Part shown: in pieces, positions 2,941 to 54,652 of the stretch
How the letters are laid out: each line of letters starts with the position of its first letter
How positions within the stretch are numbered: the stretch's first letter is position 1
Virus record (IMG/VR): IMGVR_UViG_3300034374_007216
Coordinates: 18,799-82,798 of that record
Direction: 5' to 3' (one strand)
Length of the DNA: 64,000 bases
Origin: a virus
Translations under genes and position numbers: made by a program
The notes under the pieces: generated by a model
Told to the model about the DNA's origin: nothing
The model's database searches: none
The model's input: the letters and a program-made list of their open reading frames with translations, nothing else

Positions 2941-3252
2941 ATGTGGGGGCGAAAACGAATAGCCAAAATACCCCTCACAAAAGAAACGCTTCAAAGCCTA
3001 ACAAACGCCGCATCCGATGTTTGTCATGGTCGTTTTGCTCCAAAACACATTGTAGCCGAGCGTTTAAGAATTTGTTCAACTTGTCCTTACGGCGGTACAA
3101 GATGTGATTTGTGTGGCTGTTTTATCAAAACAAAAGTATCACTATTGAATTCTAAATGCCCAATAGAAAAGTGGTCAAGCCCCTCTCGTGATGCGGGAAT
3201 AGACAGCACTCAAGAAAATAGTGCTGGCGAAGATTCCAATGACAAGGTATGA
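2941..3252 (+). CDS. Small Cys-rich zinc-binding protein (DUF6171-like)
   Basis: ERLRICSTCP...CDLCGCFIKTK...KCPIEKW pattern. Confidence 0.6.
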   Translation: MWGRKRIAKIPLTKETLQSLTNAASDVCHGRFAPKHIVAERLRICSTCPYGGTRCDLCGCFIKTKVSLLNSKCPIEKWSSPSRDAGIDSTQENSAGEDSNDKV

Positions 3253-3417
3253 TGCTTTTTCCGAGCCAAGTGTATCTCCTTTAAACAAGAGAATCATTGT
3301 AAGAGCCACAATGAATGAAATAATTTGTACCATAATCATGTCAATAATCACGCTTCGATTTGGGTTTAAAACATCAAGTGTTGTTGCGGCAAATGAAGAT
3401 GGAAGGTATTTATCCAT
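3175..3417 (-). CDS. Small two-TM membrane protein
   Basis: Two hydrophobic stretches; last gene of the minus-strand GTPase operon. Confidence 0.6.
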   Translation of the reverse strand: MDKYLPSSFAATTLDVLNPNRSVIIDMIMVQIISFIVALTMILLFKGDTLGSEKASYLVIGIFASTIFLSAVYSRITRGA

Positions 3418-3418
3418 A

Positions 3419-4093
3419 TTATCTTCCTCCCGTTATAATACTACGAGCAAATGAACCAACACCGCCTCCAACTTTTTGCATCATTCCCTCATCAGCAAGT
3501 GCTGAATGTAGCATACCACCCATCATTGATTGTTGTGCAAAATATGCTAATTGTTGTTGGTTTTGTTCAGCCGCATTAATGTTTTGTTGTGCGGTGCTTT
3601 GAAGAGATGAAAAATGAGATTTTACATTTTCACTGCTAATGGTTTGCAAGTGTTGTGGTAATTTTGATACATCAAGTGTCATTGTTCCATTATCTTCGTC
3701 AATGTTGAATGTAGCATTTCGCAATATTTCAAGAACTGAAAACGAAATAAGTGAAGATAACATATCAATCATTAAGCCCATTTGATTACTTGCAATAAAC
3801 CTGTCAATAGGCACTATACCACGAAGCAACATGATTTGCAATTCCATATCGGATGGTGGAGTAATTGGTTGCTGACCCCATTGACTTGCTTGGCCTCCCG
3901 TCATACCGTTCATGAACGCCCCTGTGCCACCTTGCATCATTGGTTGTTGTGTTGCCCACGGATTTTGCATTTGCATAGGAGAATTTCCCATTGATGCACC
4001 TAAATTTAACGCACCATTGCTATTTGTATATTGTGTGCTACTCAAACCTAACATCTTACTCGATACCCCCAAACATTTCTTGTTCAAGAGCAT
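3419..4093 (-). CDS. Hypothetical Gln/Met/Gly-rich protein
   Basis: 224-aa ORF tightly packed in operon; true start probably MLGLSS. Confidence 0.6.
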   Translation of the reverse strand: MLLNKKCLGVSSKMLGLSSTQYTNSNGALNLGASMGNSPMQMQNPWATQQPMMQGGTGAFMNGMTGGQASQWGQQPITPPSDMELQIMLLRGIVPIDRFIASNQMGLMIDMLSSLISFSVLEILRNATFNIDEDNGTMTLDVSKLPQHLQTISSENVKSHFSSLQSTAQQNINAAEQNQQQLAYFAQQSMMGGMLHSALADEGMMQKVGGGVGSFARSIITGGR

Positions 4094-4985
4094 TTTGGTT
4101 ATTTATCATATCTTGAAATGAGGCAGTTGGTTGGTTCATCATAAATAATTCATGCTCAAAAATCCTCAAATCAAATGTAATTGTAGTGATGTCATTGCGA
4201 TTAGTCATTGGATTTGTATAATGAGTAATTGTAATTCCATTGGTTTTCTTTGAATCTCGAATCAACTCATCAAGGAACGGTTCATATTTTTGCAACATTT
4301 CGGGTGTTGGGTCTTTTTTCTTAAATGAAGAAACCGGCACAGTAACTACGCTGACTCCTTTTTTCACTTGGTCACGAAGTCTTTTTGGATTAGCCTCTCT
4401 AATTTTATCTTCTTCTGCTTCCCACTTGCAAAGAAGATGATACAAATGCATGTGTTCGGGGCAATATGTACCTTTCATTTTTCGACCATTCGTAACTTTT
4501 TCTTTTGCTACAAATGCTTCGGCTTGCCCCGTAACAGGGTTTTGCCAATACAATTCCCAAAGTGTATTACCTGTATCTTCATCGCATATTTTGGCATAGA
4601 GATTATCATATTGAATGAGTGTAGCACAATCGCAACCATCAACAACGCACATACTTGATTGTTTATCGTAGCGATATTTACGACCAAAAAACAATCGAAG
4701 AGGATTTAACAAATTTCTTTTTGATGGAGTGAGCAATCGGTATGCTTGTTTAATGTCTTTTTTTCTTGCTTTGTTTGGGTCGGGATGGCGACTTGGATAA
4801 AAATTGACTTTTGGAACTTCTAAGTTTGCTTGATTTGCAATGTTTTGCATAGACTGTTGAGCGGTGGCTTGCTCTAACAAAGCGGCATGACTTAACCCTG
4901 CATTTCCTTGTTGGCTTAGTGCGTACAAATGTGCTTCATTTGCATCCGATAAACGATACTGTGGTTCTCGATAAAAATTCATCAT
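4056..4985 (-). CDS. Hypothetical protein with Cys/His metal-binding motifs
   Basis: 309-aa ORF; CVVDGC and YCPEH motifs. Confidence 0.65.
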   Translation of the reverse strand: MMNFYREPQYRLSDANEAHLYALSQQGNAGLSHAALLEQATAQQSMQNIANQANLEVPKVNFYPSRHPDPNKARKKDIKQAYRLLTPSKRNLLNPLRLFFGRKYRYDKQSSMCVVDGCDCATLIQYDNLYAKICDEDTGNTLWELYWQNPVTGQAEAFVAKEKVTNGRKMKGTYCPEHMHLYHLLCKWEAEEDKIREANPKRLRDQVKKGVSVVTVPVSSFKKKDPTPEMLQKYEPFLDELIRDSKKTNGITITHYTNPMTNRNDITTITFDLRIFEHELFMMNQPTASFQDMINNQNALEQEMFGGIE

Positions 4986-5203
4986 TGTGAATCACCTTTT
5001 ATTTGTGCTGTAAAACCATTGCTGGTTTGTACAATACTCCATTCTATTTTTGTTCCTTTTTTAAGATTTAGAAATTCTGCTATCCACATTGGAATAACAG
5101 TTCTTACACTTTTTGTATCTTTTCCTACTGATGCTACTGTTGTTTTTGTCATATTATCACCTATGCTGTAAGTAAATTTACCATTGTATTTTCCACATTC
5201 CAA
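4982..5203 (-). CDS. AbrB/MazE/SpoVT-like DNA-binding protein
   Basis: SVRTVIPMWIAEFLNLKKGTKIEW signature; true start probably MTKTTV. Confidence 0.65.
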   Translation of the reverse strand: MECGKYNGKFTYSIGDNMTKTTVASVGKDTKSVRTVIPMWIAEFLNLKKGTKIEWSIVQTSNGFTAQIKGDSQ

Positions 5204-5877
5204 CCTATTCTCGTTGCCATGAATGATTTTCTTGTTGGTACACCTGCTTTTTGCAAACGAATTAAATCATCACGAAAAGCATCAAATATTTTGTGTTCTC
5301 CTATTCTGTCTTGCCCCCACAACATTGCGGCAGTTTCATCAAAAAACCTATCCGCTTTGTTTGCTACAATCATAATTAACTTTGGAATATATTTTTTACC
5401 TTTCCATCTGCTTTTTAAATTTCTATATCGGTATTGTCTATGTACGATAGCATCCACTAAATATTTGAAACCAGCAATTTGTTGTAATGCTTCTTCGCCG
5501 CCTTTCAACACTCTATCGTCAAATATATACACAATTGCTTCGGCTTGTCGAGTTACCATGTCATCAATCCATAGATTCCAAAAACGCTCTTGACCACCTA
5601 TATCGGATGAAAATACAACACGCTTTTGACCTTTCCATGAAATACGCTTTCGTGTAGGTTTTGGAAGTAAATACCTACCGAGAATTCGCATATGTTCAGT
5701 ACGCTCTTCTAACGGTATGTCTTCCATTTCACCGGGTGTTGTCATAAAACGGTCAAGTGTAGTTTTACCAACTAATCCCGCACCGTAAATACCGACCTTG
5801 CGTGGCTTCCATGAGTTGTATAGGGTTTGACCCCATATTGCCGCACCGACAACCGCCGAGCCAACGGGTTCAACCAT
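5161..5877 (-). CDS. Ras/Arf-like small GTPase
   Basis: G1 GAGLVGKTT, G2 T, G3 DIGGQ, G4 NKAD; hydrophobic N-terminus. Confidence 0.8.
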   Translation of the reverse strand: MVEPVGSAVVGAAIWGQTLYNSWKPRKVGIYGAGLVGKTTLDRFMTTPGEMEDIPLEERTEHMRILGRYLLPKPTRKRISWKGQKRVVFSSDIGGQERFWNLWIDDMVTRQAEAIVYIFDDRVLKGGEEALQQIAGFKYLVDAIVHRQYRYRNLKSRWKGKKYIPKLIMIVANKADRFFDETAAMLWGQDRIGEHKIFDAFRDDLIRLQKAGVPTRKSFMATRIGWNVENTMVNLLTA

Positions 5878-6130
5878 CTAACCACCCCAATACCCAATTT
5901 CCAAAATCTTCGACTTTGTTCCAAAACCATTCCACTGTATTTACCCATAACGATTCACCTGTTATGTTTTCCCATAAACTCACAAACATCATACCTAAAA
6001 TTGTAAAAAGAATTGTTCTTATCCATCCAATACCTTTTTCGTAATAATTATCAAGTGTGTTTTGCGTATGCAATGCTCGTAGCGTAGCCTCAGTCGAATC
6101 ATCTTCGGGAGTTTTAAAGATTCGACCCAT
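5870..6130 (-). CDS. Small membrane protein
   Basis: TM segment ILFTILGMMFVSLW; Trp-rich amphipathic C-terminus. Confidence 0.6.
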   Translation of the reverse strand: MGRIFKTPEDDSTEATLRALHTQNTLDNYYEKGIGWIRTILFTILGMMFVSLWENITGESLWVNTVEWFWNKVEDFGNWVLGWLDG

Positions 6131-6141
6131 GAGGTATCACC

Positions 6142-6720
6142 TCACTCTTCTTTCTTTTGAAAACGCTTATCTGGTGTTCCATCTTTTTTTAATGTAACAT
6201 CTTCATCTGCAATACCCAAACCTAAATTGATTGGTTGTTTAATTTCAGCAGTATGTTTTGGCGGATTTTCAATAAGTTTGTTTTCTTCTTTAAAAGCGGA
6301 TGGTGCATCTATAACACCCCAAGACGGCGGCATTTTACCGGGATTTAACTCCATCCATCTAAGTTCTGCTTCAAGTTGTGCTTCTTGCACTCTTATTTCC
6401 ATTTCCGACCTGCGTGCATCAAATTGATTTTGCATGTTACGGTATCGAAAACTGCGTTCTCTCTCAATGTTTTGAAGGCGTACTTTTTCTTGCATGTTTT
6501 GTTCAAAGAACATTTTGAAGAAATAATACGCTATACCTTGTACAAAAAATGCCGCCATAGCGTAAGTGAACCCGTTCACTACGGGGTCATTACTGTTTAG
6601 CCACATATCTGCATCAAAGAAACCTATTGCCAATCCTACAAGTGCAGATTGGGCAAGAATTAGCCCCATTAGTCGTATTTCAGCCTCGGTTGTGTTACTA
6701 TTCGGTTGCATTGTCCTCAC
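6142..6720 (-). CDS. Two-TM membrane protein with coiled-coil tail
   Basis: Two hydrophobic helices followed by an E/Q/R-rich coiled region. Confidence 0.65.
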   Translation of the reverse strand: MRTMQPNSNTTEAEIRLMGLILAQSALVGLAIGFFDADMWLNSNDPVVNGFTYAMAAFFVQGIAYYFFKMFFEQNMQEKVRLQNIERERSFRYRNMQNQFDARRSEMEIRVQEAQLEAELRWMELNPGKMPPSWGVIDAPSAFKEENKLIENPPKHTAEIKQPINLGLGIADEDVTLKKDGTPDKRFQKKEE

Positions 6721-6755
6721 TCTTGGTCAAAAATATGGTCATTATAACTGTTTCG

Positions 6756-6927
6756 CTTTATTCACTTTATTCAAAACTTTATTCACTCAAATGACTATTC
6801 CTACTTTATTCACTTTATTCATAGTGTCTTAAAATAATATATAATAAATAATAGAGGTATAATGAATAATGAATATTTGCTTTGGTCATTTTGGTGAATA
6901 AAGTTTTGAATAAAGTGAATAAAGTGA
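6756..6927. repeat. Iteron-like TGAATAAAG repeats in inverted arrangement around an AT-rich core (copy 1)
   Basis: 31-bp inverted repeat 6756-6786 / 6894-6924 around aaaataatatataataaataat. Confidence 0.85.
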
Positions 6928-6931
6928 GTGC

Positions 6932-7393
6932 TTACCATTGCCTAAAGACAGGTACTGAAGTATCTCCGTAGCCTAATTGCTGTAATGCTCTCATACGATG
7001 GCGACCATCATGACCCACAGGACTATCGGTAAATACATAGTCTGCTCTTGGTATTACAAAACGCATATCTTCTCCTTGCATTGCTCTTTGCATGAGGTTT
7101 TTGTAGTAATCATCTTCAACCATTTCATCTGTTCCTGTTTCTTGTAAGAATTGATTTGGAGTCATGTTGGTTATTTCCGCAAAATCTTCTAAATCACTTT
7201 CATGCGGTATTTCTCTTTCAGTTGAATCAAATGTTTTTCCTTCTTTTATCCAAACACCCGGTAATCCCCCATGAAGACTTTTATCTTGTGTCCAATCTTC
7301 ATTATCTCCTTGAGTGACAAAACGAATACCGGGTACATTTGTTTCATACACCGGCATTTTCAAAAACAACCAAGCCTTGTCCATCGGAGTCAT
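6932..7393 (-). CDS. ParB/Srx-like domain protein with MTPMDKAWLFLK leader
   Basis: HDGRHRMRALQQLGY...VPV matches the ParB-like DG.HR motif. Confidence 0.6.
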   Translation of the reverse strand: MTPMDKAWLFLKMPVYETNVPGIRFVTQGDNEDWTQDKSLHGGLPGVWIKEGKTFDSTEREIPHESDLEDFAEITNMTPNQFLQETGTDEMVEDDYYKNLMQRAMQGEDMRFVIPRADYVFTDSPVGHDGRHRMRALQQLGYGDTSVPVFRQW

Positions 7394-7395
7394 TT

Positions 7396-9726
7396 TTACA
7401 ACTCCCGAAGAGTTCCCTTGTCTTTGAAATGTCTTGCCCTGTTTTCATGTTCTCCTTCAAGAGTTAATTTGCCACCTTCGGTGTGGCTGATGTCTTTATG
7501 GTCGTGGCTACCGTATATGCCACGCTTTCTTCGTTCTTGGTTAAGTTGCTCTCTATACTTTATTCTTTCGGGGCTGGACTCATACTTCTTGTCGTACTCC
7601 AACTTGTGCCGCTTGGCTTCGGGGCTTACACGCTCTTTGAGCAGTTGAAAGGCGATTTCCATAGGTTCGCTGGCGAGTTTCTTCCATTGAGAGGGGTGTA
7701 CTGCGTGCGCTCTTACGGGGTCAAGGAGGCCATCGGGTTTAGTATCACCAAAATCAATACCACCGGGCATTTCCGCTTGCGAGTCTTGCCATGCGTCAAA
7801 CATTATTTCCATTACTGCTCGGTCTAATTCCTCTTTTGTAGTAGGAAAATGATTTTGAAAAGCCATATTCATGAAGTAATTTCCTTGATTATTCAAAAAG
7901 GATAACTTGTCATCATCACTCATGTTTTCCACATAATCCCACAAAGAATTGGTAGTAGCAATAAGTTGTTCATCTGCTTCATCATTCCATATTTGTTCAT
8001 GAGGATGAATGTACTCTTCGTCTTGATAATCAATGTCTTCCTTGAGCAGTTGGAAGGCGATGTTCATTGGTTCGCTGGCGAGTTTTTCATCTTCATTTTC
8101 TGCTTCTTCATTTTCTGGCTCTTGCTTTTTAGGCAACCGCACAGTTAATGGTTTTCTGTTTGTATATACATTAACAGGGTTTGCAATTCCCATTCTTTTT
8201 CTTTCTTCATTTGCCGCCTGTAATTCATCTAATCTATTTTGCCATAACATTTCGCCTCTTTTCTTATCATCTGCTCTTTTTTCCCAATAGGTTAAGGGTA
8301 CGAAATCTGGCGATGACTCATTAGTTGTTCTAAAATTTAAATGATTTCTGCCGGTATCTCTCATAGTATTTTTTAAATTGTTAATAAATCTTACATCCAT
8401 ATCATCCGGTTTATCCAAACCTAATGGATAATTGGGTAAATTTTCCATTGGTGCTATATTTTCATTCAATCTAAATCGGGGGCTGAATAACCGGTAGCGG
8501 AGTAATTGACTATAATCATTTTTGAGCAACCGCAAAGCGATGTCCATTGGTTCGCCTGTGTATTTCATTTGGTCGGCTTCACTAAAACCAGCATTATCAC
8601 ACATTTCATCATATAATTCATATTCCATTATTTCTTCACAACTTGCGTTTTCAACTTCTTCTATCAAAGATTCCATATATTTTAACGCTTCGTGCTTATG
8701 CGGAGTTTCATATTCGGGGTCATTTTCCTCACCAAAAGTCCAATTAGGCCCATCTTCATCTTCATCTTCAATTATCTGATTTAGGTAATTTTGGTAATCT
8801 GAAAGTATTTCTGTTCTAACAGTTTCAGCACAAGAGCAAGGGTCATTATTTTCTATTGTTTGCATATCTATCATGGGTGTATCTTCTTGCATTGGTGCTT
8901 GCTCTTCAACACTTTGAGTCATTGGAGGTTGCAATTCAAGGCTTTGTTTGAGCAGTTGGAAGGCGATTTCCATTGGTTCACCTTTTGGAAATGTAAAATC
9001 CGTTAATGGTTCATTTAAAAGTTGTTGATTTTTACTCCATTGTTGAAATGGGTCGTGAAAATCCTCAATAGATTCCCATGATTGAGGTGTTCGCTCAAGA
9101 GTAACGGGTGAAACATCTTCACTAAGAACAGGTGGTATTCCATATGCTATCAATTGTTTTGCGGCTTCAATTTCCTTTTCTTTTAATTCATCAATAGATA
9201 AATTATTCGTTGGCATTAAAGCAGTTGCCGCCATTCTTAATGCATGAAAATCTATAGGTCTGTTTGTAATTCTTTGAATATCACTTTCTGGTACATCGCC
9301 ATAAATTATACCTTCGGGTTGCAAGACTTCTGCATATCTTTGTGGTGTATTTTTACCTTCAAACCCATAAAGATGCAACGGTCTATTTCCATGCTTGTAA
9401 CTTGAAGGCACATCTGCTTTTGAATGCGATTGAAAATCGGGATTGAATGAAAATAATTCTGCGGGATATGTAAAACGGCCACCTAAAGGTACTCCGTCTA
9501 ATTCCAAAGGTAATTTATCTATATTTTTGTGTCGAGCGTATCTTAGGTTATTTCTAAAAAATACATTTTCTCCACTCATTAACGACCTTGCTTCTGCTGG
9601 TGTTTTGTATTCTGCTGGTTGCATTCTAAGTGAATGTATGCTTCCACCTAACGGGTTCACATCTTCAAGATACTGCCGATACTCTTGGGGCGAAATGTAC
9701 GCTTTGCGTATCGCCACCTTCCGCAT
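7396..9726 (-). CDS. Multi-module polyprotein: N-terminal ART-like domain, four EPMxIAxxLLK linkers, C-terminal HNH-like module
   Basis: 776-aa ORF; motifs at about 8947, 8521, 8041 and 7636; C-terminal KDISH...ENRAR. Confidence 0.65.
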   Translation of the reverse strand: MRKVAIRKAYISPQEYRQYLEDVNPLGGSIHSLRMQPAEYKTPAEARSLMSGENVFFRNNLRYARHKNIDKLPLELDGVPLGGRFTYPAELFSFNPDFQSHSKADVPSSYKHGNRPLHLYGFEGKNTPQRYAEVLQPEGIIYGDVPESDIQRITNRPIDFHALRMAATALMPTNNLSIDELKEKEIEAAKQLIAYGIPPVLSEDVSPVTLERTPQSWESIEDFHDPFQQWSKNQQLLNEPLTDFTFPKGEPMEIAFQLLKQSLELQPPMTQSVEEQAPMQEDTPMIDMQTIENNDPCSCAETVRTEILSDYQNYLNQIIEDEDEDGPNWTFGEENDPEYETPHKHEALKYMESLIEEVENASCEEIMEYELYDEMCDNAGFSEADQMKYTGEPMDIALRLLKNDYSQLLRYRLFSPRFRLNENIAPMENLPNYPLGLDKPDDMDVRFINNLKNTMRDTGRNHLNFRTTNESSPDFVPLTYWEKRADDKKRGEMLWQNRLDELQAANEERKRMGIANPVNVYTNRKPLTVRLPKKQEPENEEAENEDEKLASEPMNIAFQLLKEDIDYQDEEYIHPHEQIWNDEADEQLIATTNSLWDYVENMSDDDKLSFLNNQGNYFMNMAFQNHFPTTKEELDRAVMEIMFDAWQDSQAEMPGGIDFGDTKPDGLLDPVRAHAVHPSQWKKLASEPMEIAFQLLKERVSPEAKRHKLEYDKKYESSPERIKYREQLNQERRKRGIYGSHDHKDISHTEGGKLTLEGEHENRARHFKDKGTLREL

Positions 9727-9771: not shown

Positions 9772-11655
9772 ATGTGCATGAGTCGTGTTGCTGTCAAGAA
9801 AGGCAACGACGACATCGAGAAAGAATTAGCCGGAACTGTTGGTGGAGCGGCGGCTGGTAGGTTGGCTGGTGCGGCTATTGGTAGTATTGTACCGGGAGTA
9901 GGCACTGTTATTGGTGGTATGTTAGGTGGTGCTTTAGGAGCAAAAGTTGGAGATAAAATTACTGATGCGGCGGGTGTTGGAGGTCAAGCCCCAAGTAGTA
10001 CACAAAACTCGATGGCATCTTCATCAATGGCTACATCGGGTTCGGACAACACTCAAGCAGGTCAAGAAGACAACGCCGAACAATTATCCGCCCAACAATC
10101 AGCCGCTCAAAGAGCAGGTGGGGCGGCGATGGCAATAGGCCAACATTTTGCACAGCAACAACAAATGCAACAACAGAACAATCAACAAATGGCTGAAAAG
10201 GCTAAGCAAAATTCACAAATTCAAACAGGCGAGCCGATGGATATGTCATGGCGTTTGTTAAAAGATATTTATTTTAATCAATTATACAATAAACCAGAAT
10301 ATGCTCAAGCAAGACAACAAATCATTGATGCGGCTATTGAAAACATGCAAAATGTTCAATATTCACCAGATACTCATGCAAGGATTCGTGCCGGATTTCC
10401 GGGGTATGAACCATCTCATACAATAAATGGTCGAAATTTTTATACAGATGAACTTGGTCAAGATATAGATGCTCGATACCCCGAAGATTACATGTATGAC
10501 CAAGAACATAGTAACCAAAAAAGATTTCCCGGCATGGTTAATATTCCACCATATCATTTAATGGATGCTATGAAAAATTTTGTTGATTGGGAAAATATAC
10601 CTTTAGTCACAGAAGGTGAAAAAGTAGGTCAAAAAAAAGATGTAGGAATTGAAAATCTATTTGGTATTGGTACACCATATAAACGACAAGAACCTTATCG
10701 TGGTGTTTTACAAGAAAGATTAGGAGGATTACCTTCTGTTAAAACATTTCTTGGTAGGGATATGAGATATAAACCAGAAAGTACAGAAAATATTCACCAT
10801 AGTTATTTTATGCATCCTAATTTAGAGCGTGGGCAAAATTTGCTTGAAGCAAATATTGAAAGACAAAAAGAACAAAAACGATTAGCAGAAGAAGCAGAAG
10901 CAGAACAAAAACGATTAGCAGAAGAACAACGAATAAAAGATGAAAATAGAAAAAGACAACAAGCGATAAATAGAGAAACAAGGAAAAAGAAAAAATTAGC
11001 CGATGAAGCAGGTTTAACTGTTGAAGAATGGGAAAAAGCAGAAGAAGAAAGAATAAAAAGAGAGAAAAAAGAAGAAAAAGCAAGAATAAAAGCAGAAAAA
11101 GAACAAAAATTACAAGAAACAATTGCAGAAAACCAACGAATAATTCAAGCAAAAATTCAAGCAAAAATAGAACGAAACAAAAGAGAAGAAAATTTCCCAA
11201 ACGATGTTAATGAAGTTCCCGAAGATGTTTTAAATACAGAAGAAGGGCGTAAAATAGCATCTAAATGGGAAAGAATTGGAAATAGAGTTTATTATAATAA
11301 AAGTCCTGTTGAAGACATGACTGATATAAGAAATGCGTGGAACATAGATTGGAAAGAAAAAGTTCTTGCTGTTGCTGTTGGGCGTAAATTAGGTTATATT
11401 AAAAAATCCGAACCAATGGATTTGGCTTGGCAACTTCTTAAAAATGAACTACAACTTCCACTTCGCTTAGGAGAAAAAATTCGTGAAGATGTCATGGCAC
11501 TTGACAGGCAACACAAAATAATGGACAATCCCGATGGCACGCTAATTCAAAACATTCATCCCGACATGGAAAATGTCGTTAAGTTGCTCACAAATATGGA
11601 AGCCGATAAACAACCTGTACCTACACGGCCTTCAAGACCTGCATACCTGTTTTGA
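9772..11655 (+). CDS. Glycine-zipper / coiled-coil polyprotein with two EPMDxxWxLLK motifs
   Basis: GAAAGRLAGAAIGSIVPGVGTVIGGMLGGALG zipper; E/K-rich coil; motifs at about 10228 and 11407. Confidence 0.7.
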   Translation: MCMSRVAVKKGNDDIEKELAGTVGGAAAGRLAGAAIGSIVPGVGTVIGGMLGGALGAKVGDKITDAAGVGGQAPSSTQNSMASSSMATSGSDNTQAGQEDNAEQLSAQQSAAQRAGGAAMAIGQHFAQQQQMQQQNNQQMAEKAKQNSQIQTGEPMDMSWRLLKDIYFNQLYNKPEYAQARQQIIDAAIENMQNVQYSPDTHARIRAGFPGYEPSHTINGRNFYTDELGQDIDARYPEDYMYDQEHSNQKRFPGMVNIPPYHLMDAMKNFVDWENIPLVTEGEKVGQKKDVGIENLFGIGTPYKRQEPYRGVLQERLGGLPSVKTFLGRDMRYKPESTENIHHSYFMHPNLERGQNLLEANIERQKEQKRLAEEAEAEQKRLAEEQRIKDENRKRQQAINRETRKKKKLADEAGLTVEEWEKAEEERIKREKKEEKARIKAEKEQKLQETIAENQRIIQAKIQAKIERNKREENFPNDVNEVPEDVLNTEEGRKIASKWERIGNRVYYNKSPVEDMTDIRNAWNIDWKEKVLAVAVGRKLGYIKKSEPMDLAWQLLKNELQLPLRLGEKIREDVMALDRQHKIMDNPDGTLIQNIHPDMENVVKLLTNMEADKQPVPTRPSRPAYLF

Positions 11656-12457
11656 TTTCATCAACAATTGCTGATGAAATTTTTAGTTTCTCTTCATTTA
11701 CGCCTGTTTCAAAACCCCACACATGAAGGTACTTCACAAGTTTTTCAGTTGAAATGTTTGCACCACTTTTTTCGGCAAAAGGACAACCACCAAGCCCTCC
11801 TATGCTACTATCGAATTCAGTAATGCCGTAAAACAAACCGCTTTGAATTATTTTTATAGCCTTTTCTTCATCTCCTTTATGGTGCAAGTGCAACGCAGGT
11901 TTTATTTTCTCAGCAATTGAAATGCTTGCCATGTCTTTCACCTGCCAAATTTCACCGATGCCTACGGTGTCTGCAAACACAACCGTCGAGCCAAATAATT
12001 TTGCATCACGAATACAATTTTTCAATACTAAGTTTGTAACTTTACCGGTGTACGGAGAGCCAAACGCCATGCTAAGATACACTCGCACATTTTCTTTTGG
12101 CACACCATTGAGCATCGTTTGATACATTTGCACAATTTCACTGCGAGTCTTTTTCATGTTTCGCATGTTAAATTCTTCACACGGTGAAAACACGATGTTG
12201 AATTTTTCCGCCCCTGCCGCTTTTGCTCGGTCAAAGCCACGCTGATTCATGACAAGTACGCCGCCATGCTGAAACACCTGCTCCGCATCAGCCATCTGCG
12301 GAACAAGTTTAGGGTGAGCGAAACTTACTTCTTCGACGCTCTCCAACCCCGCATCGTAAAGTGAATGGATAAGACGCACTTTAGTTTCAGTGTCAATAAT
12401 TTGTTTGATATTTTGTAATCCATCTCTCGGACCTACTTCGTACACTGAAACACGCAT
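11621..12457 (-). CDS. hmgL: Hydroxymethylglutaryl-CoA lyase (DRE-TIM metallolyase)
   Basis: EVGPRDGLQN, ADTVG, HLH, GGLGGCPFA and NISTE motifs. Confidence 0.88.
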   Translation of the reverse strand: MRVSVYEVGPRDGLQNIKQIIDTETKVRLIHSLYDAGLESVEEVSFAHPKLVPQMADAEQVFQHGGVLVMNQRGFDRAKAAGAEKFNIVFSPCEEFNMRNMKKTRSEIVQMYQTMLNGVPKENVRVYLSMAFGSPYTGKVTNLVLKNCIRDAKLFGSTVVFADTVGIGEIWQVKDMASISIAEKIKPALHLHHKGDEEKAIKIIQSGLFYGITEFDSSIGGLGGCPFAEKSGANISTEKLVKYLHVWGFETGVNEEKLKISSAIVDEIKTGMQVLKAV

Positions 12458-14421: not shown

Positions 14422-15264
14422 ATGAGCAAATACATGAAGCCCATAGACACAAGCCCAATAAACAGACAAGACGCATACGCAGTGCAACACAGCGTATGTG
14501 CAAACCGCATCAGCGAGTTCCTTGCGAGCAGGAGTGCAGAAGTATCTCTTCCGTACACTCGTGAGAGCGTACTCGCAGGTGTACCAACCTTCGCAACCAA
14601 CTACGAGCACGCTACCTTCACACAAGCAGAAATCCTTGTGTTCGCAAACCAATGCTTTGAGCATGTGCAAGCATACGGAACAGTTGCAGTGAAAGACCAA
14701 GTGCCTTCATATACGAGCACTGCGAAAGACTTCGCCAAAATGTTCGCCCTCACATACAAAGTGAGCAAGGGTGCAAATGAAGGTCAAGTACGCAACGGTG
14801 TTTTCCAAGCCCTTGCACAGTACCGACGAGCCATGAAGTCTGCACAAGCGAAAGACGAACTCAACACCTCACTCAATGCAGGTGTAGGATGGTTCGCTGA
14901 TGGTGTCGTTGATGCAAACGGCGTTGCACGACCATACGCTGACGAATCTAAGGCTCGCAAAGCATGGGTACGCAAGCATATCGGTGAAGATTGGTGGGTT
15001 GGCCGTACTAAAGCGGACAAGCAATCACTCCTCGCAACCGCTAAAGTGTACAAGCAAGCCAATGCACTCGGCAAATCCGAGCAAGCACCTGCAAACACCT
15101 ACACAATCCAAGCCGTCGAGAAAGCACATCACTCAACCATCAAGCGTATTGCTCGTGATATGAGTGGCGGCACGACCTTTGCAAGCAAGGACAAAGCGTT
15201 GCAGTACATCACTGACAACATCGCTCAATTCTATGCACTCGACTTGAGTGCATACAACCTTTGA
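14422..15264 (+). CDS. Hypothetical Ala/Lys-rich early protein
   Basis: 280-aa ORF with own promoter, GGTGA RBS-like site and downstream hairpins. Confidence 0.75.
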   Translation: MSKYMKPIDTSPINRQDAYAVQHSVCANRISEFLASRSAEVSLPYTRESVLAGVPTFATNYEHATFTQAEILVFANQCFEHVQAYGTVAVKDQVPSYTSTAKDFAKMFALTYKVSKGANEGQVRNGVFQALAQYRRAMKSAQAKDELNTSLNAGVGWFADGVVDANGVARPYADESKARKAWVRKHIGEDWWVGRTKADKQSLLATAKVYKQANALGKSEQAPANTYTIQAVEKAHHSTIKRIARDMSGGTTFASKDKALQYITDNIAQFYALDLSAYNL

Positions 15265-15328
15265 GTAGGCTCGCAGTAGTCCGTTTTCCTGACCCACTCA
15301 CCCGTTGAGTGTTCTCATACGAGTTGTT

Positions 15329-15401
15329 GAGTGCATGAGGGCTTCGGCCCTCATGTACTCCCCTTTGGGCGTGGTCGCATAGGCGACCACGCCCTTTTTT
15401 T
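15329..15401 (+). terminator. Tandem hairpins ending in a T-tract
   Basis: gagtgcatgagggc-TTCG-gccctcatgtactc, then gggcgtggtcgc-atag-gcgaccacgccc-ttttttt. Confidence 0.75.
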
Positions 15402-15762
15402 ATTTTCAAAATCCTCATAGCACGACGGGTCGTGGGTGCTGTCGCCACGCTACGCCCGAACAAAAAGTTCAGCCTTGCGTGTTAATGCGACGCACCCATA
15501 TGGGTTGGACTCTTCACGCATCTTGATTAATTCCGCATCGTGAAGATATTCATTTGAACAATTCCACATCGGGAGGGGTGTGCAATTGCACAATCCCGCA
15601 TTATATATTTGAGCATCCGAATAATATGGGTGTGGGTATTTGCTCATCGCCTTGACTTTTAGAGCGACCTAAGATACGAACATGTTCGATTAGTCTGTAT
15701 TGGTATCGAACATGTTCGCCTTTAGTCATATCTTGCGTCAAGCAAACCGTGATACTGCGAGC

Positions 15763-16000
15763 CACTTTATTCACTATGTTCAAAACCCACTTCACTCATT
15801 TGACTATTCGCTTTAGTCATAGTCATGATACCCCTACACTTCATAGCGAAAATGCCCCACGCTTTATTCACTTTATCATAGGTACTACAATTAATAATAA
15901 TATATATTATAGAGTATATGAATAAAGTGAATATTCCTGTACGGCCAAACTGCTTTAGTCAAACGGGTGAATAAAGTTTTGAATAAAGTGAATAAAGTGA
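15763..16000. repeat. Iteron-like element copy 2 (homologous to 6756-6927)
   Basis: Identical 35-mer GGTGAATAAAGTTTTGAATAAAGTGAATAAAGTGA at 15966-16000 and 6893-6927; same order of sub-motifs. Confidence 0.85.
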
Positions 16001-16106
16001 TACAAATGACACACACCTAAACGCAACACTGCGAGCCTGTCAAGACTGACCAAGCCTTGCACAACATAACAACCTGCGGTGAATAAAAAGGCCACTGAAA
16101 TTGATT

Positions 16107-16128
16107 AGTATTTAAACTAACTAAGAAA
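16107..16128 (+). promoter_or_regulatory. Conserved promoter motif copy 2
   Basis: AGTATTTAAACTAACTAAGAAA upstream of ATG 16140. Confidence 0.8.
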
Positions 16129-16139
16129 GTTTTGAGCCG

Positions 16140-17320
16140 ATGAAAACCGAAAACATCAATCCCCTAAACCTAAACCCACAACAGTTGAACATACAGATGG
16201 CACACATACTACAGAAGTATGGCTTCGATGCAGTGCATGACAGACTACACGCAGTAGGTGGTCGAATGATTATAGGCTCACCTGTTGTCAATCGCACTCA
16301 CATTAACAACCTTGCTCATGTGTCCATTGAACTTATCTTCGATGTGTATAACATGAACACCACCATTCGTATGCTTGAATGGGCAAACGACAACGGCATG
16401 ACCGTGGACTTTTGGAACAACAAGAACGGAATCCTTCACGATGTACGAGAGGTGGTCGCATGATTGGGCCTGTCGCATGGGAAGAACTGCATTGCCGACC
16501 ACCTGCTACACCACAGAAGTTTCTTGAGATTGAGTACAAAGGACAGTTGTACAAATACGATGTTGCGAGTGCAGTGTGGTTGTTCGATTACTACCAACAG
16601 TTTCGTACATGGTGCGAAGAAGATGTACGCAACAACAACGGTGAATACGCAGACGAGATTGAGGTGATTGCTTGAACCACGATACATTACTAAAATCCTA
16701 TATGAATGAATGTCTTAAACAATGTAAAGTGCCGACATGGGAAGGGTGGACTGAATTAAAACGATTGCATGAGGAGATTGAGGTGATTGCTTGACAGAAG
16801 AATACGAATACCCCGATGACTTAGACGAATGGGATTACCCACAGTGGCACGAAGACTTGTACGAAACACTACAACAATTCGGCTTGGCAGACAAGCCTCG
16901 ATTACTCTTAGGGTTGGAACGAATCATGCGAGCACATATCAACAACGCAGATGCTTCACAACTTTCAAGACTACGACAAGAGAACACAGTGCTACAATCA
17001 AAATTACAGAATGCGAATGAGCAATTCAAACTTTTGTACACAGAAATTTACATGAAACATGATGGGGTGATTGCTTGAGCCGTGATGTCCACTGCACAAC
17101 ATGCGTTGATTGGTACAACCCTGTACCCTACGACGAAGACGAAGGTGAGAACTCCGAGCCTATCGCTTTCAGCAAACGCCCATGTCAAATGGACATGAGT
17201 GAATGGTGTCACTTCGCAGGTGAACGACACATCATACACATAGTAAATGATAACTTACTTACACACATGGAAGTATGCACCGACTGTTATATGAAACATG
17301 AAGGAGTGTATGAACAATGA
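16140..17320 (+). other. Cluster of short overlapping hypothetical ORFs (16140-16463, ~16460-16675, 16672-16794, 16791-17078, 17075-17320)
   Basis: Stop/start overlaps; repeated GGTGATTGCTTGA junctions. Confidence 0.6.
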
Positions 17321-42117: not shown

Positions 42118-42870
42118 ATGACACATGTTTTAGTTGATAGGAAAAAGTTTCTTGACTTTTTATCTTGCTTCGGCAAGAGTGCTACAGATTTACGATTAGA
42201 TTGTACAACATCAAGAATTACGGGTGAAATAGCATTTGCTCAGTATTTCTTTAGGCGACAGTTTAACGGTGCTACAGTCAAAGAAGAAGGCACGCTACAC
42301 ATTGTTTTCTTAGAAAAGGTAATTGCTTTCTTGAAGGCGAGCAAACAACCAACAGTTGAATTTCGACAAGTAAGTGTAGCAAAGCCCATACACATTGAAA
42401 GTGGCGGCAACAAGATACAACTGCCAAGCAGTGATGACATCATATCAGCAAGCAAAGTGCCTGTTGTGAAAAGAATGCTCGACAAATCTTTGAAGAACAA
42501 TTGGACATCATTTGCAGAAGATGAACTTACAGTACACGCTTCTATAGAAACTAAGGATTTAATTTCTCTTTCTTCAATGAAGAGTTTGGTATCGGATAAT
42601 GCTGAATACAAACTTCGTGTTCATTGCGGTGAGAAAGAGTTTGGTATCATTGCAGGTAAAGCAATTAGTGGTCGAATATTTACCACTATTCCAACAAATG
42701 ATTGCGATGGCCCGAACACTACTATCTCATCGAACTTTGGTAAGTGGTTGCCTACTTGTTTCATGTATCTCGATGACGGTCATGCAAGAGTACACATGGG
42801 TCAAGATACCGTTGTCATCTTTGAACAAGATAATACTTTACTCATGATAATAAACGAAAGTGATTTTTGA
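42118..42870 (+). CDS. Putative PCNA-like sliding clamp
   Basis: 250 aa, two-domain pattern, directly upstream of PolB in an RFC operon. Confidence 0.5.
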   Translation: MTHVLVDRKKFLDFLSCFGKSATDLRLDCTTSRITGEIAFAQYFFRRQFNGATVKEEGTLHIVFLEKVIAFLKASKQPTVEFRQVSVAKPIHIESGGNKIQLPSSDDIISASKVPVVKRMLDKSLKNNWTSFAEDELTVHASIETKDLISLSSMKSLVSDNAEYKLRVHCGEKEFGIIAGKAISGRIFTTIPTNDCDGPNTTISSNFGKWLPTCFMYLDDGHARVHMGQDTVVIFEQDNTLLMIINESDF

Positions 42871-45266
42871 TGATTGTTGATTGGTTCTCGGAAGACCCGT
42901 ATGACCCGCCGACTATTTATGAGCGTACTCGTGATACTAACGGTAACTTACATGAAACATGGATTACCAGCGAAGATGAAGGATATGTTTATCCTTTCTG
43001 TTGGGTAAGGCAGAACGCTCCTACATGGGTACTGAATCGCCTTGTAAGAGCGAAAGCACGCATACAACACGACATAGTGGCGAAGGACATCAATGGATGC
43101 AAACTATGGCGAGTTGATACGAACCATCCAAATGCAGTGTGGGAAATCAAAGAGATGTGTGAGAAGTGGACTTGCGAAGCAGACCTTCCCTATCTTGACC
43201 AAATACTCATTCAAAGATACCCACATGGTATTCCAGAATTTGTACCTCGCAAGTGGTATTACGATATGGAATGGAAAACAGATGGTAAGGGGGAGATAAC
43301 AGTTATCGCTGTTGTTGATACCCATACAGATACACCTGTTGTATTTTCATGGAGTAAAGAATCCCAACAGAAGTTCTTGACTGATGACAAATACATTGAC
43401 AGGTATGGAGGCTACGAACTTCGGACTTATCCAAATGAAGATAGAATGCTCAAAGGATTCTTAGCACATCTCAAAGAATGCGACCCCGACATGCTCATTG
43501 CTCACGCAGGGGCGTGGGCTGACTTACCTAAATTGTATGAGCGTCTTGGTGATATGAGAAAGGACATGTCGCCGCTCGGTGTCTTTTTACCACCAAAGAA
43601 AAACGGTGAAGGTTACAAAAGTACAGCACAACCAATCAAAGGCAGACTCGTATTTGATACTGCGGCGATGTCATCCGAAGGCAGTGGCTTTGAGGGTGTA
43701 TGGCAGAAGTCGGGGCGGGGGCAAGCACAAGAGCGTAAGTTGAATTGGTTTGCTGTTGAATTAAACTTAGGACACAAACTTACCAATGAAATAGAAGGCA
43801 TGACTGTATTCAATGGTTGGGATGATTACTATGATGACTTCGTTGATTACTGTTTAGTTGATACTACTCTCCTTCGTGATATTGATGTAAAACTCAATTG
43901 TACCGATTTCCACTTAGCCTTGCAGAAGGTTGCAGGTGTTCAGTTCGCAAGCACTCACAATGTATCACGATACTTCCGTGGGTTGATTGCTCGCATTACT
44001 GATATGAAAGCACCGACGACATACAAAGAAACACGACCCGAACTACAGGCCGCATGGGTTATGCCACCAATTCCGGGCCGACATGAGAATGTAGCGTTAG
44101 TTGATTTTGCTTCGCTATATCCAAATATTATTTTATCAGCAAATCTTTGTTGGACTACGCTTACTGATAAGCCGGGTCCAAACACTCTCACTCTCGACAT
44201 TCCACCTAAGTTAGATGACAAAGGTAATCACATTCCGGGTACGGGTGGGGTGTTCCATTGGCGACAGGACATTGAAGGTATTCTTCCAAAGGCAGTGCGT
44301 CAATTACTCGCTTTGCGTAAATCATACAAGCAACGCATGAAAGACGCTACAGACCCCGACATCAAACTTGGTTATCACATGTTACAGATGGCGGTCAAGG
44401 TTGCGGTCAATGCTATCTATGGTATGGTGGGTATGAGTAAATTGCAGGGTGGATGGATAAGTTATCCTATCGCTCAATCAATTACTTATCTTGGTCGTAA
44501 GTCTATCACTATGCTTGTGGATAGAAGCGAAGAGATGGGTTATCGTGGTCTTGCAGGTCATACTGATTCTTGTTACATACAAGTTCCGTTTGATGAGGCT
44601 GAGGATGTAGCACAGAAACTTACAGATATTGCACAGAATGAAATGAATTTGAAATTCCTCGATGTTGAATTAGAAGCATTCTTCCCGTATTGGTTCACAG
44701 CCAATACTAAGAATCGTAACTTCGGCATCAAGTCCTACCCTCCCGAAGATGCGGGTGACATGAAGGTTACAGGTTATTCGTTGAAGGCATCGAATGCACC
44801 ACCGCTAACAAAAGAAATACTCATGAAAGTATTTACTATGATTTCAAACGGCGAAGAAGAGGATGCCATCTTTGATGAGGTTCGCCCTCACATCAAGCGT
44901 ACATACAATGGTGAGCGTGAAATTGATGAGGCGGCATCGTATGGTCGCATACAAAAACATCTTGATGATTATGATGTAGTAGTGCCTAATCCAGCGAAGG
45001 CGGCACGCTATTCAAACAGATACTTAGGTACGAATTACGGAAAGAATGAGAGTGTCAAATGGGTATTCATTGATGGTGTACCAAATGGTCAAGATGTATG
45101 TAATGTTATTGCTTACGACAAGGTGAAACAGTTGGAAGAATATTCTATAGATTGGTACACTGTGGTTGATAAGTGGATTAAGAAGAAATTAAAATCGGTG
45201 TATGAAGCACTCGATTGGGATTTAGAAAGACTCACAGCACTTCGTGCGGCGAGAAAATTATGGTGA
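42867..45266 (+). CDS. polB: Family B DNA polymerase
   Basis: ExoI DME; DFASLYPNI; KVAVNAIYG; GHTDS. Confidence 0.95.
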   Translation: MMIVDWFSEDPYDPPTIYERTRDTNGNLHETWITSEDEGYVYPFCWVRQNAPTWVLNRLVRAKARIQHDIVAKDINGCKLWRVDTNHPNAVWEIKEMCEKWTCEADLPYLDQILIQRYPHGIPEFVPRKWYYDMEWKTDGKGEITVIAVVDTHTDTPVVFSWSKESQQKFLTDDKYIDRYGGYELRTYPNEDRMLKGFLAHLKECDPDMLIAHAGAWADLPKLYERLGDMRKDMSPLGVFLPPKKNGEGYKSTAQPIKGRLVFDTAAMSSEGSGFEGVWQKSGRGQAQERKLNWFAVELNLGHKLTNEIEGMTVFNGWDDYYDDFVDYCLVDTTLLRDIDVKLNCTDFHLALQKVAGVQFASTHNVSRYFRGLIARITDMKAPTTYKETRPELQAAWVMPPIPGRHENVALVDFASLYPNIILSANLCWTTLTDKPGPNTLTLDIPPKLDDKGNHIPGTGGVFHWRQDIEGILPKAVRQLLALRKSYKQRMKDATDPDIKLGYHMLQMAVKVAVNAIYGMVGMSKLQGGWISYPIAQSITYLGRKSITMLVDRSEEMGYRGLAGHTDSCYIQVPFDEAEDVAQKLTDIAQNEMNLKFLDVELEAFFPYWFTANTKNRNFGIKSYPPEDAGDMKVTGYSLKASNAPPLTKEILMKVFTMISNGEEEDAIFDEVRPHIKRTYNGEREIDEAASYGRIQKHLDDYDVVVPNPAKAARYSNRYLGTNYGKNESVKWVFIDGVPNGQDVCNVIAYDKVKQLEEYSIDWYTVVDKWIKKKLKSVYEALDWDLERLTALRAARKLW

Positions 45267-54054: not shown

Positions 54055-54652
54055 TGTGTTGGCATTAGATATTGAAACTACAAACTTCTCGTGGGAAATT
54101 GGAGGTTGGGATAAGACGGCATCGTTTGAACCATCAGTCGTGGCGACATGGGATGGTAACAAAGGAACTATCTATTGTGATGAATCCATTGATAATGAGC
54201 ATGTTGTAAAAGCCCTACATCCTCGTACTCTCGGAGATGACCTAACAGAACACATAGAAAAGGGCGGTGTAATCATAGGGCATAATATCAAATCATTTGA
54301 TTTACCCGTATTGCGTGATTCACTCGATTGTTGGGCTGTCAATGATTTACTTGGTAAATCCGATGCCGTCATAGATACAAGACATTTGATAAACAAAGCA
54401 TCTCTAAGTGTTGGTAAAGTTGATTTAACACTTGGTATGCTTGCAAAAACTACATTCAACGACAATAAGTTAATGAACAGTGCAGATGCACCGATTGCTT
54501 GGAGAGAGGGGCGATATGATGAGGTGGCAAAATACTGCTTGAGTGATGCCAAAATAACATACGATTTGTATGAGTTTGGTAAGAGTGAAGGCTACATTTC
54601 ATCACGAAGTCTTGAAACAGGCGATGTCGTTGAAATCCAAGTTGAGTGGTAA
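54047..54652 (+). CDS. DEDD / RNase H-like 3'-5' exonuclease
   Basis: LDIET, GHNIKSFD, YCLSD. Confidence 0.8.
   Translation: MSDVLALDIETTNFSWEIGGWDKTASFEPSVVATWDGNKGTIYCDESIDNEHVVKALHPRTLGDDLTEHIEKGGVIIGHNIKSFDLPVLRDSLDCWAVNDLLGKSDAVIDTRHLINKASLSVGKVDLTLGMLAKTTFNDNKLMNSADAPIAWREGRYDEVAKYCLSDAKITYDLYEFGKSEGYISSRSLETGDVVEIQVEW

Follow-up and report, generated by a model that had tools for sequence, protein, structure and literature searches.

A conserved gene block around a divergent Arf-like GTPase, a candidate membrane module of magroviruses

The IMG/VR virus record IMGVR_UViG_3300034374_007216, which looks like a magrovirus genome, carries on its minus strand a compact block of seven small genes arranged around a gene for a very divergent GTPase. 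The record is linear, 82.8 kb long and estimated to be 77% complete; the stretch analysed here, called the window, covers its bases 18,799-82,798 (64,000 nt), and positions are those of the window unless otherwise stated (Table 1). From the first gene to the last, the products are p192, p86, the GTPase, an AbrB/MazE-like protein, CysHis309, QM224 and TM80. Five of these genes, for a protein with two transmembrane segments (2-TM), a 1-TM protein, the GTPase, a Cys-rich protein and a Q/M-rich protein, form a core shared in the same order by three distant viral lineages. The block, hereafter the cassette, is deeply conserved and without description in the searchable literature. It probably acts at the host membrane. 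Its more specific role is proposed tentatively, as a possibility short of a probable one: in magroviruses, the cassette would form a self-contained membrane module of the late region, with a private, very divergent Arf-family-like GTP switch at its centre, and would serve virion release.

Conservation as a unit is first seen among close relatives. A scan of IMG/VR gave 158 viral stretches that encode a GTPase relative; the top 80, with identities of 65-83%, served as related loci and were searched by tblastn with every cassette protein. The GTPase, CysHis309, QM224 and TM80 occur in 80/80 loci, p192 and p86 in 79 each, and the single locus lacking the latter two starts 95 nt before its GTPase gene. 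The AbrB-like gene is found in 57/80 loci, while the downstream neighbours HTH263 and p549 are both found in 80/80. Gene order is identical across these loci, with a collinearity far above chance. The initial annotation, which had proposed a membrane-remodelling, egress or lysis operon from the DNA letters alone, had named lack of conservation as a unit as grounds for giving up that idea; what is found is a block collinear in 79-80 of the 80 loci, with its core present in distant lineages.

These distant lineages were reached with a profile of 44 GTPases run against 1.84 billion representative proteins (E ≤ 0.001), in which two of the diverged full-length matches led to lineage A' (4 loci) and lineage B (140 stretches, of which 80 were kept). 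In lineage A', hidden Markov model (HMM) matches to p192, the GTPase and the Cys-rich protein occur in 4/4 loci. The one gene map read there, that of locus L086, shows a 2-TM protein, a 72-aa transmembrane (TM) protein, the GTPase, the Cys-rich and the Q/M-rich proteins, with the core block directly after a thermosome gene. In the same locus, four to five further small proteins (9295-11856 of L086), each with a hydrophobic segment towards its N- or C-terminus, take the place of TM80 after the core. Lineage B encodes, collinearly in 71/80 loci, a 2-TM protein of 165 aa, a Trp-rich TM protein of 73 aa, a GTPase of 223 aa, a Cys-rich protein of 226 aa and a Q/M-rich protein of 237 aa, directly after the genes for the protease, the major capsid protein (MCP; found in 74/80) and head proteins. 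Comparison of lineage 1, that of the window, with lineage B by hhalign pairs the GTPases at 99.9% (E 6e-31), the Cys-rich proteins at 69.9% (E 4e-5) and the Q/M-rich proteins at 49.9% (E 1.7e-4, 87 columns); the other 37 pairs, the two of the TM proteins and 35 between non-corresponding proteins, all give ≤15.6%. No counterpart of TM80 was recognised in lineage B, and an HMM scan of the A' and B loci detected no homologue of the AbrB-like protein. Both genes are lineage-specific additions to the core.

The core is found in three neighbourhoods: before the terminase gene in the present record, after the MCP and head genes in lineage B, and after the thermosome gene in lineage A'. That the five genes moved as a block among these neighbourhoods is the strongest argument for one functional module. 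In the literature on magroviruses or Magrovirales and on Arf-like or small GTPases of archaeal viruses, the cassette is not described; supplementary gene tables, which may list the gene, were not covered. The word 'GTPase' is absent from the main texts of PMC5434244, PMC11706807 and PMC10160649.

Two of the three lineages have the block within or alongside the morphogenetic region, a placement that can be read in two ways. In lambda the lysis cassette immediately precedes the terminase genes, and in P2 it separates the head genes from the tail genes; the positions of the present cassette, before the terminase and in a head-tail interval, correspond to these and are counted in favour of a role in egress. 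The same placement could indicate a morphogenesis factor, which would either provide a membrane-anchored platform for assembly or packaging, or assist the building of heads or tails as a chaperone or checkpoint dependent on GTP. To the left of the window, the record encodes TerL, portal, head protease and MCP, all on the minus strand, and the cassette is upstream of these genes and co-oriented with them; in lineage B it is inserted between the MCP and small head genes and the downstream presumed tail genes. Moreover, its conservation equals that of structural genes, as the lineage B counts for the MCP and for the collinear cassette indicate. Against morphogenesis, the block of lineage A' follows the thermosome gene and not structural genes, and none of the cassette proteins is matched by a head, tail or packaging family of PHROGs. 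To our knowledge, tailed virions are devoid of membranes and the assembly of no tailed virus needs two to three small integral membrane proteins. A role in morphogenesis is considered unlikely.

The seven minus-strand open reading frames (ORFs) occupy positions 3175-6720, and adjacent ones are separated, or overlap, by no more than about 11 nt. The genes for p192 and p86 are separated by 11 nt, and those for p86 and the GTPase overlap by 8 nt. If the AbrB-like gene starts at an internal ATG, as is likely, a gap of 8 nt separates it from the GTPase gene, and it overlaps the CysHis309 gene by 4 nt; a gap of about 1 nt lies between the CysHis309 gene and the likely internal start of the QM224 gene, and 1 nt separates the latter from the TM80 gene. 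The initial annotation had announced seven tightly coupled minus-strand genes, including a two-TM coiled-coil protein, a small TM protein, a Q/M-rich protein and a second two-TM protein. All the ORFs are present and closely packed, hydropathy of the window copies and of their homologues agrees with the three membrane-protein assignments, and the composition of QM224 bears out the fourth.

The sequence just before the cassette contains a 43-nt inverted repeat with 93% complementarity, in which TGAATAAAG units flank an AT-rich core, and a TATA-like TTATAA is found about 30 nt before the probable ATG of p192. Judging from its sequence, this intergenic region probably serves the cassette as promoter and operator. 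At least two copies of the 9-mer of the inverted repeat are present upstream of the p192 homologue in only 6/78 related loci. Because the repeat is kept in so few loci, it was rejected as a defining part of the module.

A repeat-rich control region of its own is also what might be expected if the cassette served membrane-level host takeover, superinfection exclusion or (anti-)defence, by blocking virus entry, altering transport or division, or countering a host system. Exclusion systems commonly consist of small membrane proteins and a switch protein. The presence of a dedicated AbrB/MazE-like regulator in one sub-lineage and the mobility of the block as a cassette among genome positions point in the same direction. 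In contrast, accessory exclusion or defence genes are usually patchy, whereas the present block occurs in nearly all related contigs of sufficient length (79-80 of 80 and, in lineage B, 71 of 80), and its proteins are 50-80% identical, as are core genes. Such a function is given a low probability.

The GTPase is the centre of the cassette. Motif G1 covers residues 32-39, G3 92-95 and G4 173-176, with a G5-like motif at 220-222. G1 (GxxxxGKT), G3 (DxxG) and G4 (NKAD) are invariant in 74/74 unique homologues and, as GxxxxGK(S/T), DxxG and NKxD, in 54/54 sequences of lineage B. Motif G2 is inferred from the invariant Thr46, Thr47 and Thr60. Hence the statement of the initial annotation that G1-G4 are intact stands for G1, G3 and G4; it is softened for G2, and the position of the catalytic Gln is variable, 35 of the 74 sequences having Q there, 31 E, 6 D and 2 H. 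The G3 region reads D-x-G-G-(Q/E/D/H), and the Trp residues at G3+8 and G3+11 are invariant in both lineages. A double Gly and a Trp at +11 are typical of Arf, Sar and G-alpha proteins and are not known as features of Ras, Rab or Rho.

A structural model of the GTPase made with AlphaFold 2 (AF2) has a predicted local distance difference test score (pLDDT) of 77.4 and a predicted template modelling score (pTM) of 0.78, and shows a helix (residues 4-23) preceding the G domain. Foldseek finds at least 500 matches in the PDB at E ≤ 0.001, small GTPases throughout among the matches listed, and 997 of 1000 re-aligned chains reach Z ≥ 8. By predicted fold and motifs the protein is clearly a small GTPase of the Ras superfamily (TRAFAC). 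Re-alignment places Arl8b first (Z 15.3, root-mean-square deviation 2.6, 161 aligned residues), followed by GerdArfR1 (14.0), HodArfR1 (13.8), Arl6 (13.7), LokiRagO (13.5), Arf1 (13.5) and Arl2 (13.1). A structure search independent of Foldseek is headed by SRbeta (14.1), Arf6 (14.0) and Sar1 (13.2). Collectively, Arf, Arl, Sar and SRbeta proteins occupy 7 of the top 8 rows in the re-alignment and 6 of the top 8 in the independent search; only Arl8b stands more than 1 Z above the remaining chains, and Rab5 follows at 12.8. The Ras/Arf-like character assigned by the initial annotation is supported in that the fold is of the Ras superfamily and most of the nearest structures are of the Arf family.

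By sequence, the GTPase is nearly an orphan. The window copy has no match to Pfam Arf (PF00025) at E ≤ 0.1, its only Pfam match being Roc (E 0.008). Among 44 homologues, the Pfam matches are to Roc (26), Arf (6, best E 0.041), MMR_HSR1 (5), RagA (5) and Ras (3), all below cut-off. The best phmmer match in the PDB has E 0.078 (IFT22), the family profile finds nothing in the PDB below E 0.4, and NCBIfam yields noise only (E 0.05-0.06). The profile search of 1.84 billion representatives gave only 88 matches at E ≤ 0.001, many of them fragments, and the very large GTPase families of cells are absent from among them. The two weakest of its matches, P0206 and P0207, pass the Pfam Arf threshold (36.5 and 36.2 bits, cut-off 22.3, E about 5e-9); each is a singleton, on a contig of 2.4 kb and of 1.7 kb, respectively. 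Together with P0157, P0158, P0201 and P0208, likewise singletons on short contigs, they make up a set of remote relatives for which no relative was found in viral, genome or metagenome contigs. Several relatives bear the automatic JGI name 'GTPase SAR1 family protein'. Since the curated Pfam Arf threshold is missed, the GTPase is not filed as a member of the Arf family; it is called Arf-family-like and very divergent.

Likeness to the Arf family (Arl8b, Arl6, Arf1, Arf6, Arl2, Sar1 and SRbeta) consists in the G-domain fold, in which these proteins are the best structural matches, and in a G3 of D-x-G-G-Q type, the invariant Trp 11 residues after the Asp and a helix before the G domain. Asgard ArfR proteins (GerdArfR1, 8OUM/8OUN; HodArfR1, 8OUK) are also among the top structural matches. 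The viral protein differs from the Arf family in that the Q is replaced by E, D or H in 39/74 sequences, in lacking a myristoylation-type N-terminus, in the weak amphipathicity of its helix, and in being encoded by an archaeal virus beside genes for membrane proteins. Its N-terminal helix is uncharged, moderately hydrophobic and rich in small residues. The G domain would contain insertions of about 16 residues between G1 and G3 and about 22 between G3 and G4, estimated against Arf numbering.

Ras/Arf-like GTPases had been considered unusual in viruses of prokaryotes by the initial annotation, and the surveys agree. A tblastn search with the GTPase in 50,697 GenBank phage records gave no match, and in the structural search of BFVD, 43 matches reach E ≤ 0.001 and each of the 50 matches listed comes from a giant virus of eukaryotes. 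Giant-virus GTPases, such as the mimivirus Rab (5XC5, Z 12.3 to the cassette GTPase), resemble the present protein as virus-encoded small GTPases. Those proteins, in eukaryotic viruses, closely copy the Rab, Ran or Ras of the host, whereas the cassette GTPase belongs to a prokaryotic tailed virus, is far from cellular families by sequence and has fixed membrane-protein neighbours. A pair of MglA-MglB type is unsupported, as a Pfam scan of the cassette proteins finds no match to Roadblock/LC7 or longin families.

CysHis309 is the second most conserved product of the cassette (56-78% identity, 80/80 loci). It bears the signature CxxxxC ... GTYCPEHxHxxH, and the six residues C113, C118, C175, H178, H180 and H183 are invariant in 34/34 aligned sequences, in keeping with its first description as a Cys/His protein. 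A Zn site formed by C113, C118, C175 and H178 is plausible from this pattern; it is made uncertain by lineage A', where the three His are replaced. A profile of the family matches 635 clusters in a set of 5.8 billion proteins, and the best 120 of the 635 are without Pfam domain and, where they bear a name at all, are called 'hypothetical protein'. The AF2 model is of intermediate confidence (pLDDT 68.2, pTM 0.49); with an effective coverage of residues 8-56 and 68-198, none of 48,161 chains reaches Z ≥ 5 and Foldseek gives no match at E ≤ 0.001. The Atlas likewise holds no usable match for CysHis309 or QM224.

CysHis309 is also a candidate partner of the GTPase, on the basis of predicted complexes. 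Prediction of the pair with GTP and Mg included gave ipSAE scores of 0.45, 0.46 and 0.40, against 0.00 for three controls, a result classed as 'weak support'; at scores ≤0.60, only 7 of 80 solved complexes passed, as did both of the mismatched pairs that passed. The runs share at least 57% of contacts, and the pLDDT of the partner is at least 70. With strict co-conservation of the two genes taken as a prior, the weak score gives mild support for the pair.

Such a pair recalls ArvABC of Euryarchaeota (Mills et al. 2024, PMC10927574), the nearest described archaeal system, which is linked to the cassette by analogy only. In Haloferax, the small GTPase ArvA, which has a hydrophobic N-terminal helix, is reported to bring about the formation of vesicles with the help of two proteins of its operon, and a role as GTPase-activating protein (GAP) is proposed for one of these, a Zn-ribbon protein (PMC10927574). 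Shared with the cassette are a GTPase with an N-terminal helix and small operon partners, one of which is Cys-rich; ArvABC is without the integral membrane and Q/M-rich proteins of the viral cassette. ArvB (OapB/DUF2073, PF09846) has 0 matches in the 82.8-kb record, in a search that was positive in the Haloferax volcanii and Methanosarcina acetivorans controls. For ArvC (DUF2072 Zn-ribbon), the Pfam scan of the seven cassette proteins yields no Zn-ribbon match; no DUF2072-specific search was made and the rest of the record was outside the scan. Because no cassette protein is at or above a curated Pfam cut-off, none is recognisable as a member of the ArvC Zn-ribbon family. It is in this context that a non-lytic function has to be considered, in which the cassette would remodel membranes into vesicles in the style of ArvA, Arf or Sar1, or into a membrane-bound compartment for replication or assembly. 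An Arf-family-like fold with an N-terminal helix would suit such a function, as would the pairing of the GTPase with a Cys-rich protein, weakly supported by the complex score and reminiscent of the ArvA operon (PMC10927574), and the low-complexity Q/M-rich protein could act as a scaffold. Non-lytic remodelling is nevertheless judged improbable: ArvB is absent, curated Pfam cut-offs are reached by no protein of the cassette, CysHis309 has no detectable known fold, Zn ribbons included, and the His ligands of the Cys-rich protein are lost in lineage A'.

QM224 and the AbrB-like protein have contrasting distributions. QM224, present throughout, has a low-complexity N-terminal half rich in Q, M, G and N and a conserved helical C-terminal half (Q+M+N+G 38%); its Atlas model is poor (pLDDT 0.47). 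The AbrB-like protein is probably a swapped-hairpin DNA-binding regulator, a likeness that holds at the level of the family, since 18/22 homologues match PF04014 at E ≤ 0.1 (best 7.1e-6). It does not hold for the window copy taken by itself, which remains below the cut-off (E 0.079, 13.4 bits against 24.7), so that the name given in the initial annotation is retained for the family only; a match to the PrlF antitoxin is also weak (E 0.021). In loci without the AbrB-like gene, the Cys-rich gene comes directly after that of the GTPase, and in the two loci of lineages B and A' whose ORFs were read (L094 and L086) no ORF of AbrB size lies between the two genes. The AbrB-like gene is therefore a lineage-specific accessory.

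Three cassette proteins are predicted to be membrane proteins, by a Kyte-Doolittle 19-mer scan of the window proteins repeated across their homologues. In p192, a strong segment (17-35) and a weaker aromatic one (about 50-73) are followed by a long charged helix, probably a coiled-coil; both segments are found at threshold 1.2 in 66/74 homologues. This protein has no match in Pfam, PHROGs or NCBIfam, and its positional analogue in lineage B is the 165-aa 2-TM protein. A single segment (34-52) is present in p86, followed by a Trp-rich region, and the mean Trp content is 6.8% in its 71 homologues versus 7.3% in 57 positional analogues of lineage B. TM80 has two TM segments in 72/75 homologues; it is like holins in size and topology only and matches no holin family in Pfam or PHROGs. 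More generally, no cassette protein is matched by a holin, endolysin or spanin family of Pfam, PHROGs or NCBIfam, which is in line with the initial annotation, where no holin or endolysin had been recognised.

These components can be assembled into a working scheme for virion release. The GTP-bound GTPase would dock on the host cytoplasmic membrane by means of its N-terminal helix and of p192 and p86. CysHis309 would act as its effector or GAP-like partner and QM224 would serve as a scaffold. The complex would then switch on a late membrane event, most likely a breach or remodelling of the membrane leading to the release of virions, with TM80 and the Trp-rich p86 as the membrane-active parts and the AbrB-like protein as a lineage-specific regulator. 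The role in egress, lysis or remodelling is a best guess, founded on gene content and on position in a late, morphogenetic region. Likeness to the lysis cassettes of lambda (S-R-Rz) and P2 (Y-K-lysABC) consists in small proteins with one or two TM segments (80-190 aa here) encoded in a compact late-region block. The viral cassette differs from them in having no wall-degrading enzyme, and the phage cassettes are without counterpart of its GTPase and its two soluble orphans.

Several observations weigh against this scheme. In the searches of Pfam, PHROGs and NCBIfam, no cassette protein matches a holin, lysin, ESCRT, ArvB/ArvC or other membrane-remodelling family. The block of lineage A' is not beside structural genes, and the late timing of the cassette is read from genome position only. 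GTP turnover may be slow or absent, since the catalytic Gln is replaced by E or D in 37/74 sequences. The N-terminal helix is weakly amphipathic, with a median hydrophobic moment of 0.30 versus up to 0.60 elsewhere in the protein, and it passes the TM threshold in just 7/74 sequences. The score of the GTPase-CysHis309 complex falls, without a prior, in a band that is 'more often wrong than right'. Finally, the two upstream TM proteins have no match in the hhalign comparison of lineages 1 and B; in the absence of detectable cross-lineage homology, their equivalence is positional.

Table 1. Positions of the cassette genes and of other features of the window and record
Feature	Position	Strand	Remarks
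p192	6142-6720	minus	ORF, 192 aa; first cassette gene; true start probably ATG at 6711
p86	5870-6130	minus	ORF, 86 aa
GTPase	5161-5877	minus	ORF, 238 aa
AbrB/MazE-like protein	4982-5203	minus	ORF, 73 aa; likely start ATG at 5152
CysHis309 (Cys-rich orphan)	4056-4985	minus	ORF, 309 aa
QM224 (Q/M-rich orphan)	3419-4093	minus	ORF, 224 aa; likely start ATG at 4054
TM80	3175-3417	minus	ORF, 80 aa; last block gene in this lineage
Upstream intergenic region	6721-6931		43-nt inverted repeat (within 6753-6927) and TATA-like motif
HTH263	2203-2994	minus	263 aa
Peptide tag copies	1415-1450, 1778-1813, 7636-7668, 8041-8073, 8521-8553, 8947-8979	minus
Peptide tag copies	10231-10263, 11410-11442	plus
p627	9772-11655	plus
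HMGL-like gene (HMG-CoA lyase family)	11621-12457	minus	Pfam E 1.4e-19
Family-B DNA polymerase (PolB) gene	42867-45266
Group II chaperonin (thermosome) gene	54646-56154
TerL	14742-16226 (record coordinates)	minus
1916-aa ORF	3252-9002 (record coordinates)	minus	between portal and head-protease genes; no PHROG match

The remainder of the record provides the viral context. In addition to PolB and the thermosome, the window encodes an SNF2 helicase, an HMGL-like enzyme and a DUF932 protein. Magroviruses are head-tailed viruses assigned to Marine Group II/Poseidoniales (PMC5434244), archaea that are abundant in the ocean. The gene content of the record, with PolB, the thermosome, SNF2 and the genes of the left part, fits the description published for magroviruses (PMC5434244), and the record is labelled a probable magrovirus for this reason. 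The HMGL-like gene is a candidate auxiliary metabolic gene.

The flanks of the cassette have features of their own. HTH263 adjoins the cassette downstream in 80/80 loci and is located upstream of TerL. It contains Cys pairs, matches HTH_20/HTH_11 weakly (E about 0.01-0.02) and a PHROG 'DNA binding domain' family with E 0.0016, and may be a regulator or a small-terminase-like protein. A peptide tag, (S/G)-E-P-M-(D/E/N)-x-(A/S)-(W/F/L)-x(1,2)-L-L-K, occurs in 8 copies in the whole record and is confined to three large proteins flanking the cassette, p549 (2 copies), p776 (4) and p627 (2); to judge from its sequence, it looks like a repeated signal for processing, targeting or module boundaries. 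The last of these proteins has a Gly-zipper-like hydrophobic N-terminal stretch and matches tail lysin, tape-measure and endolysin families of PHROGs (E 3.5e-11 to 7e-6). As these matches span only its Gly-rich N-terminus (residues about 13-170) and are probably driven by composition, the idea of p627 as a lysin was dropped; it could be a membrane-active ejected protein.

In a recent paper on Poseidoniales viruses, holins are proposed only for another order, the Adrikavirales, and not for magroviruses (PMC11706807). Compact, core-like and conserved widely, the cassette is a candidate for how magroviruses act on, or leave through, the host membrane. Small GTPases of the Ras superfamily are rarely fixed in prokaryotic viruses, and that of the cassette is one such case; its distance from cellular families is of interest for the evolution of Arf-type switches. 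It is tempting, if speculative and unlikely on present grounds, to imagine that magroviruses release their progeny by a GTP-timed, coat-like machine. Two viral membrane proteins would recruit a private Arf-type switch, a Cys-rich effector and a Q/M-rich scaffold would read it, and the switch would trigger rupture or scission of the membrane. If this were true, an egress mechanism would be in hand for the first time in tailed viruses of marine archaea, together with a prokaryotic-virus analogue of the membrane remodelling nucleated by Arf and Sar1, and the cassette could be the sign of a reservoir of Arf-family GTPases that viruses held early in the history of the family.

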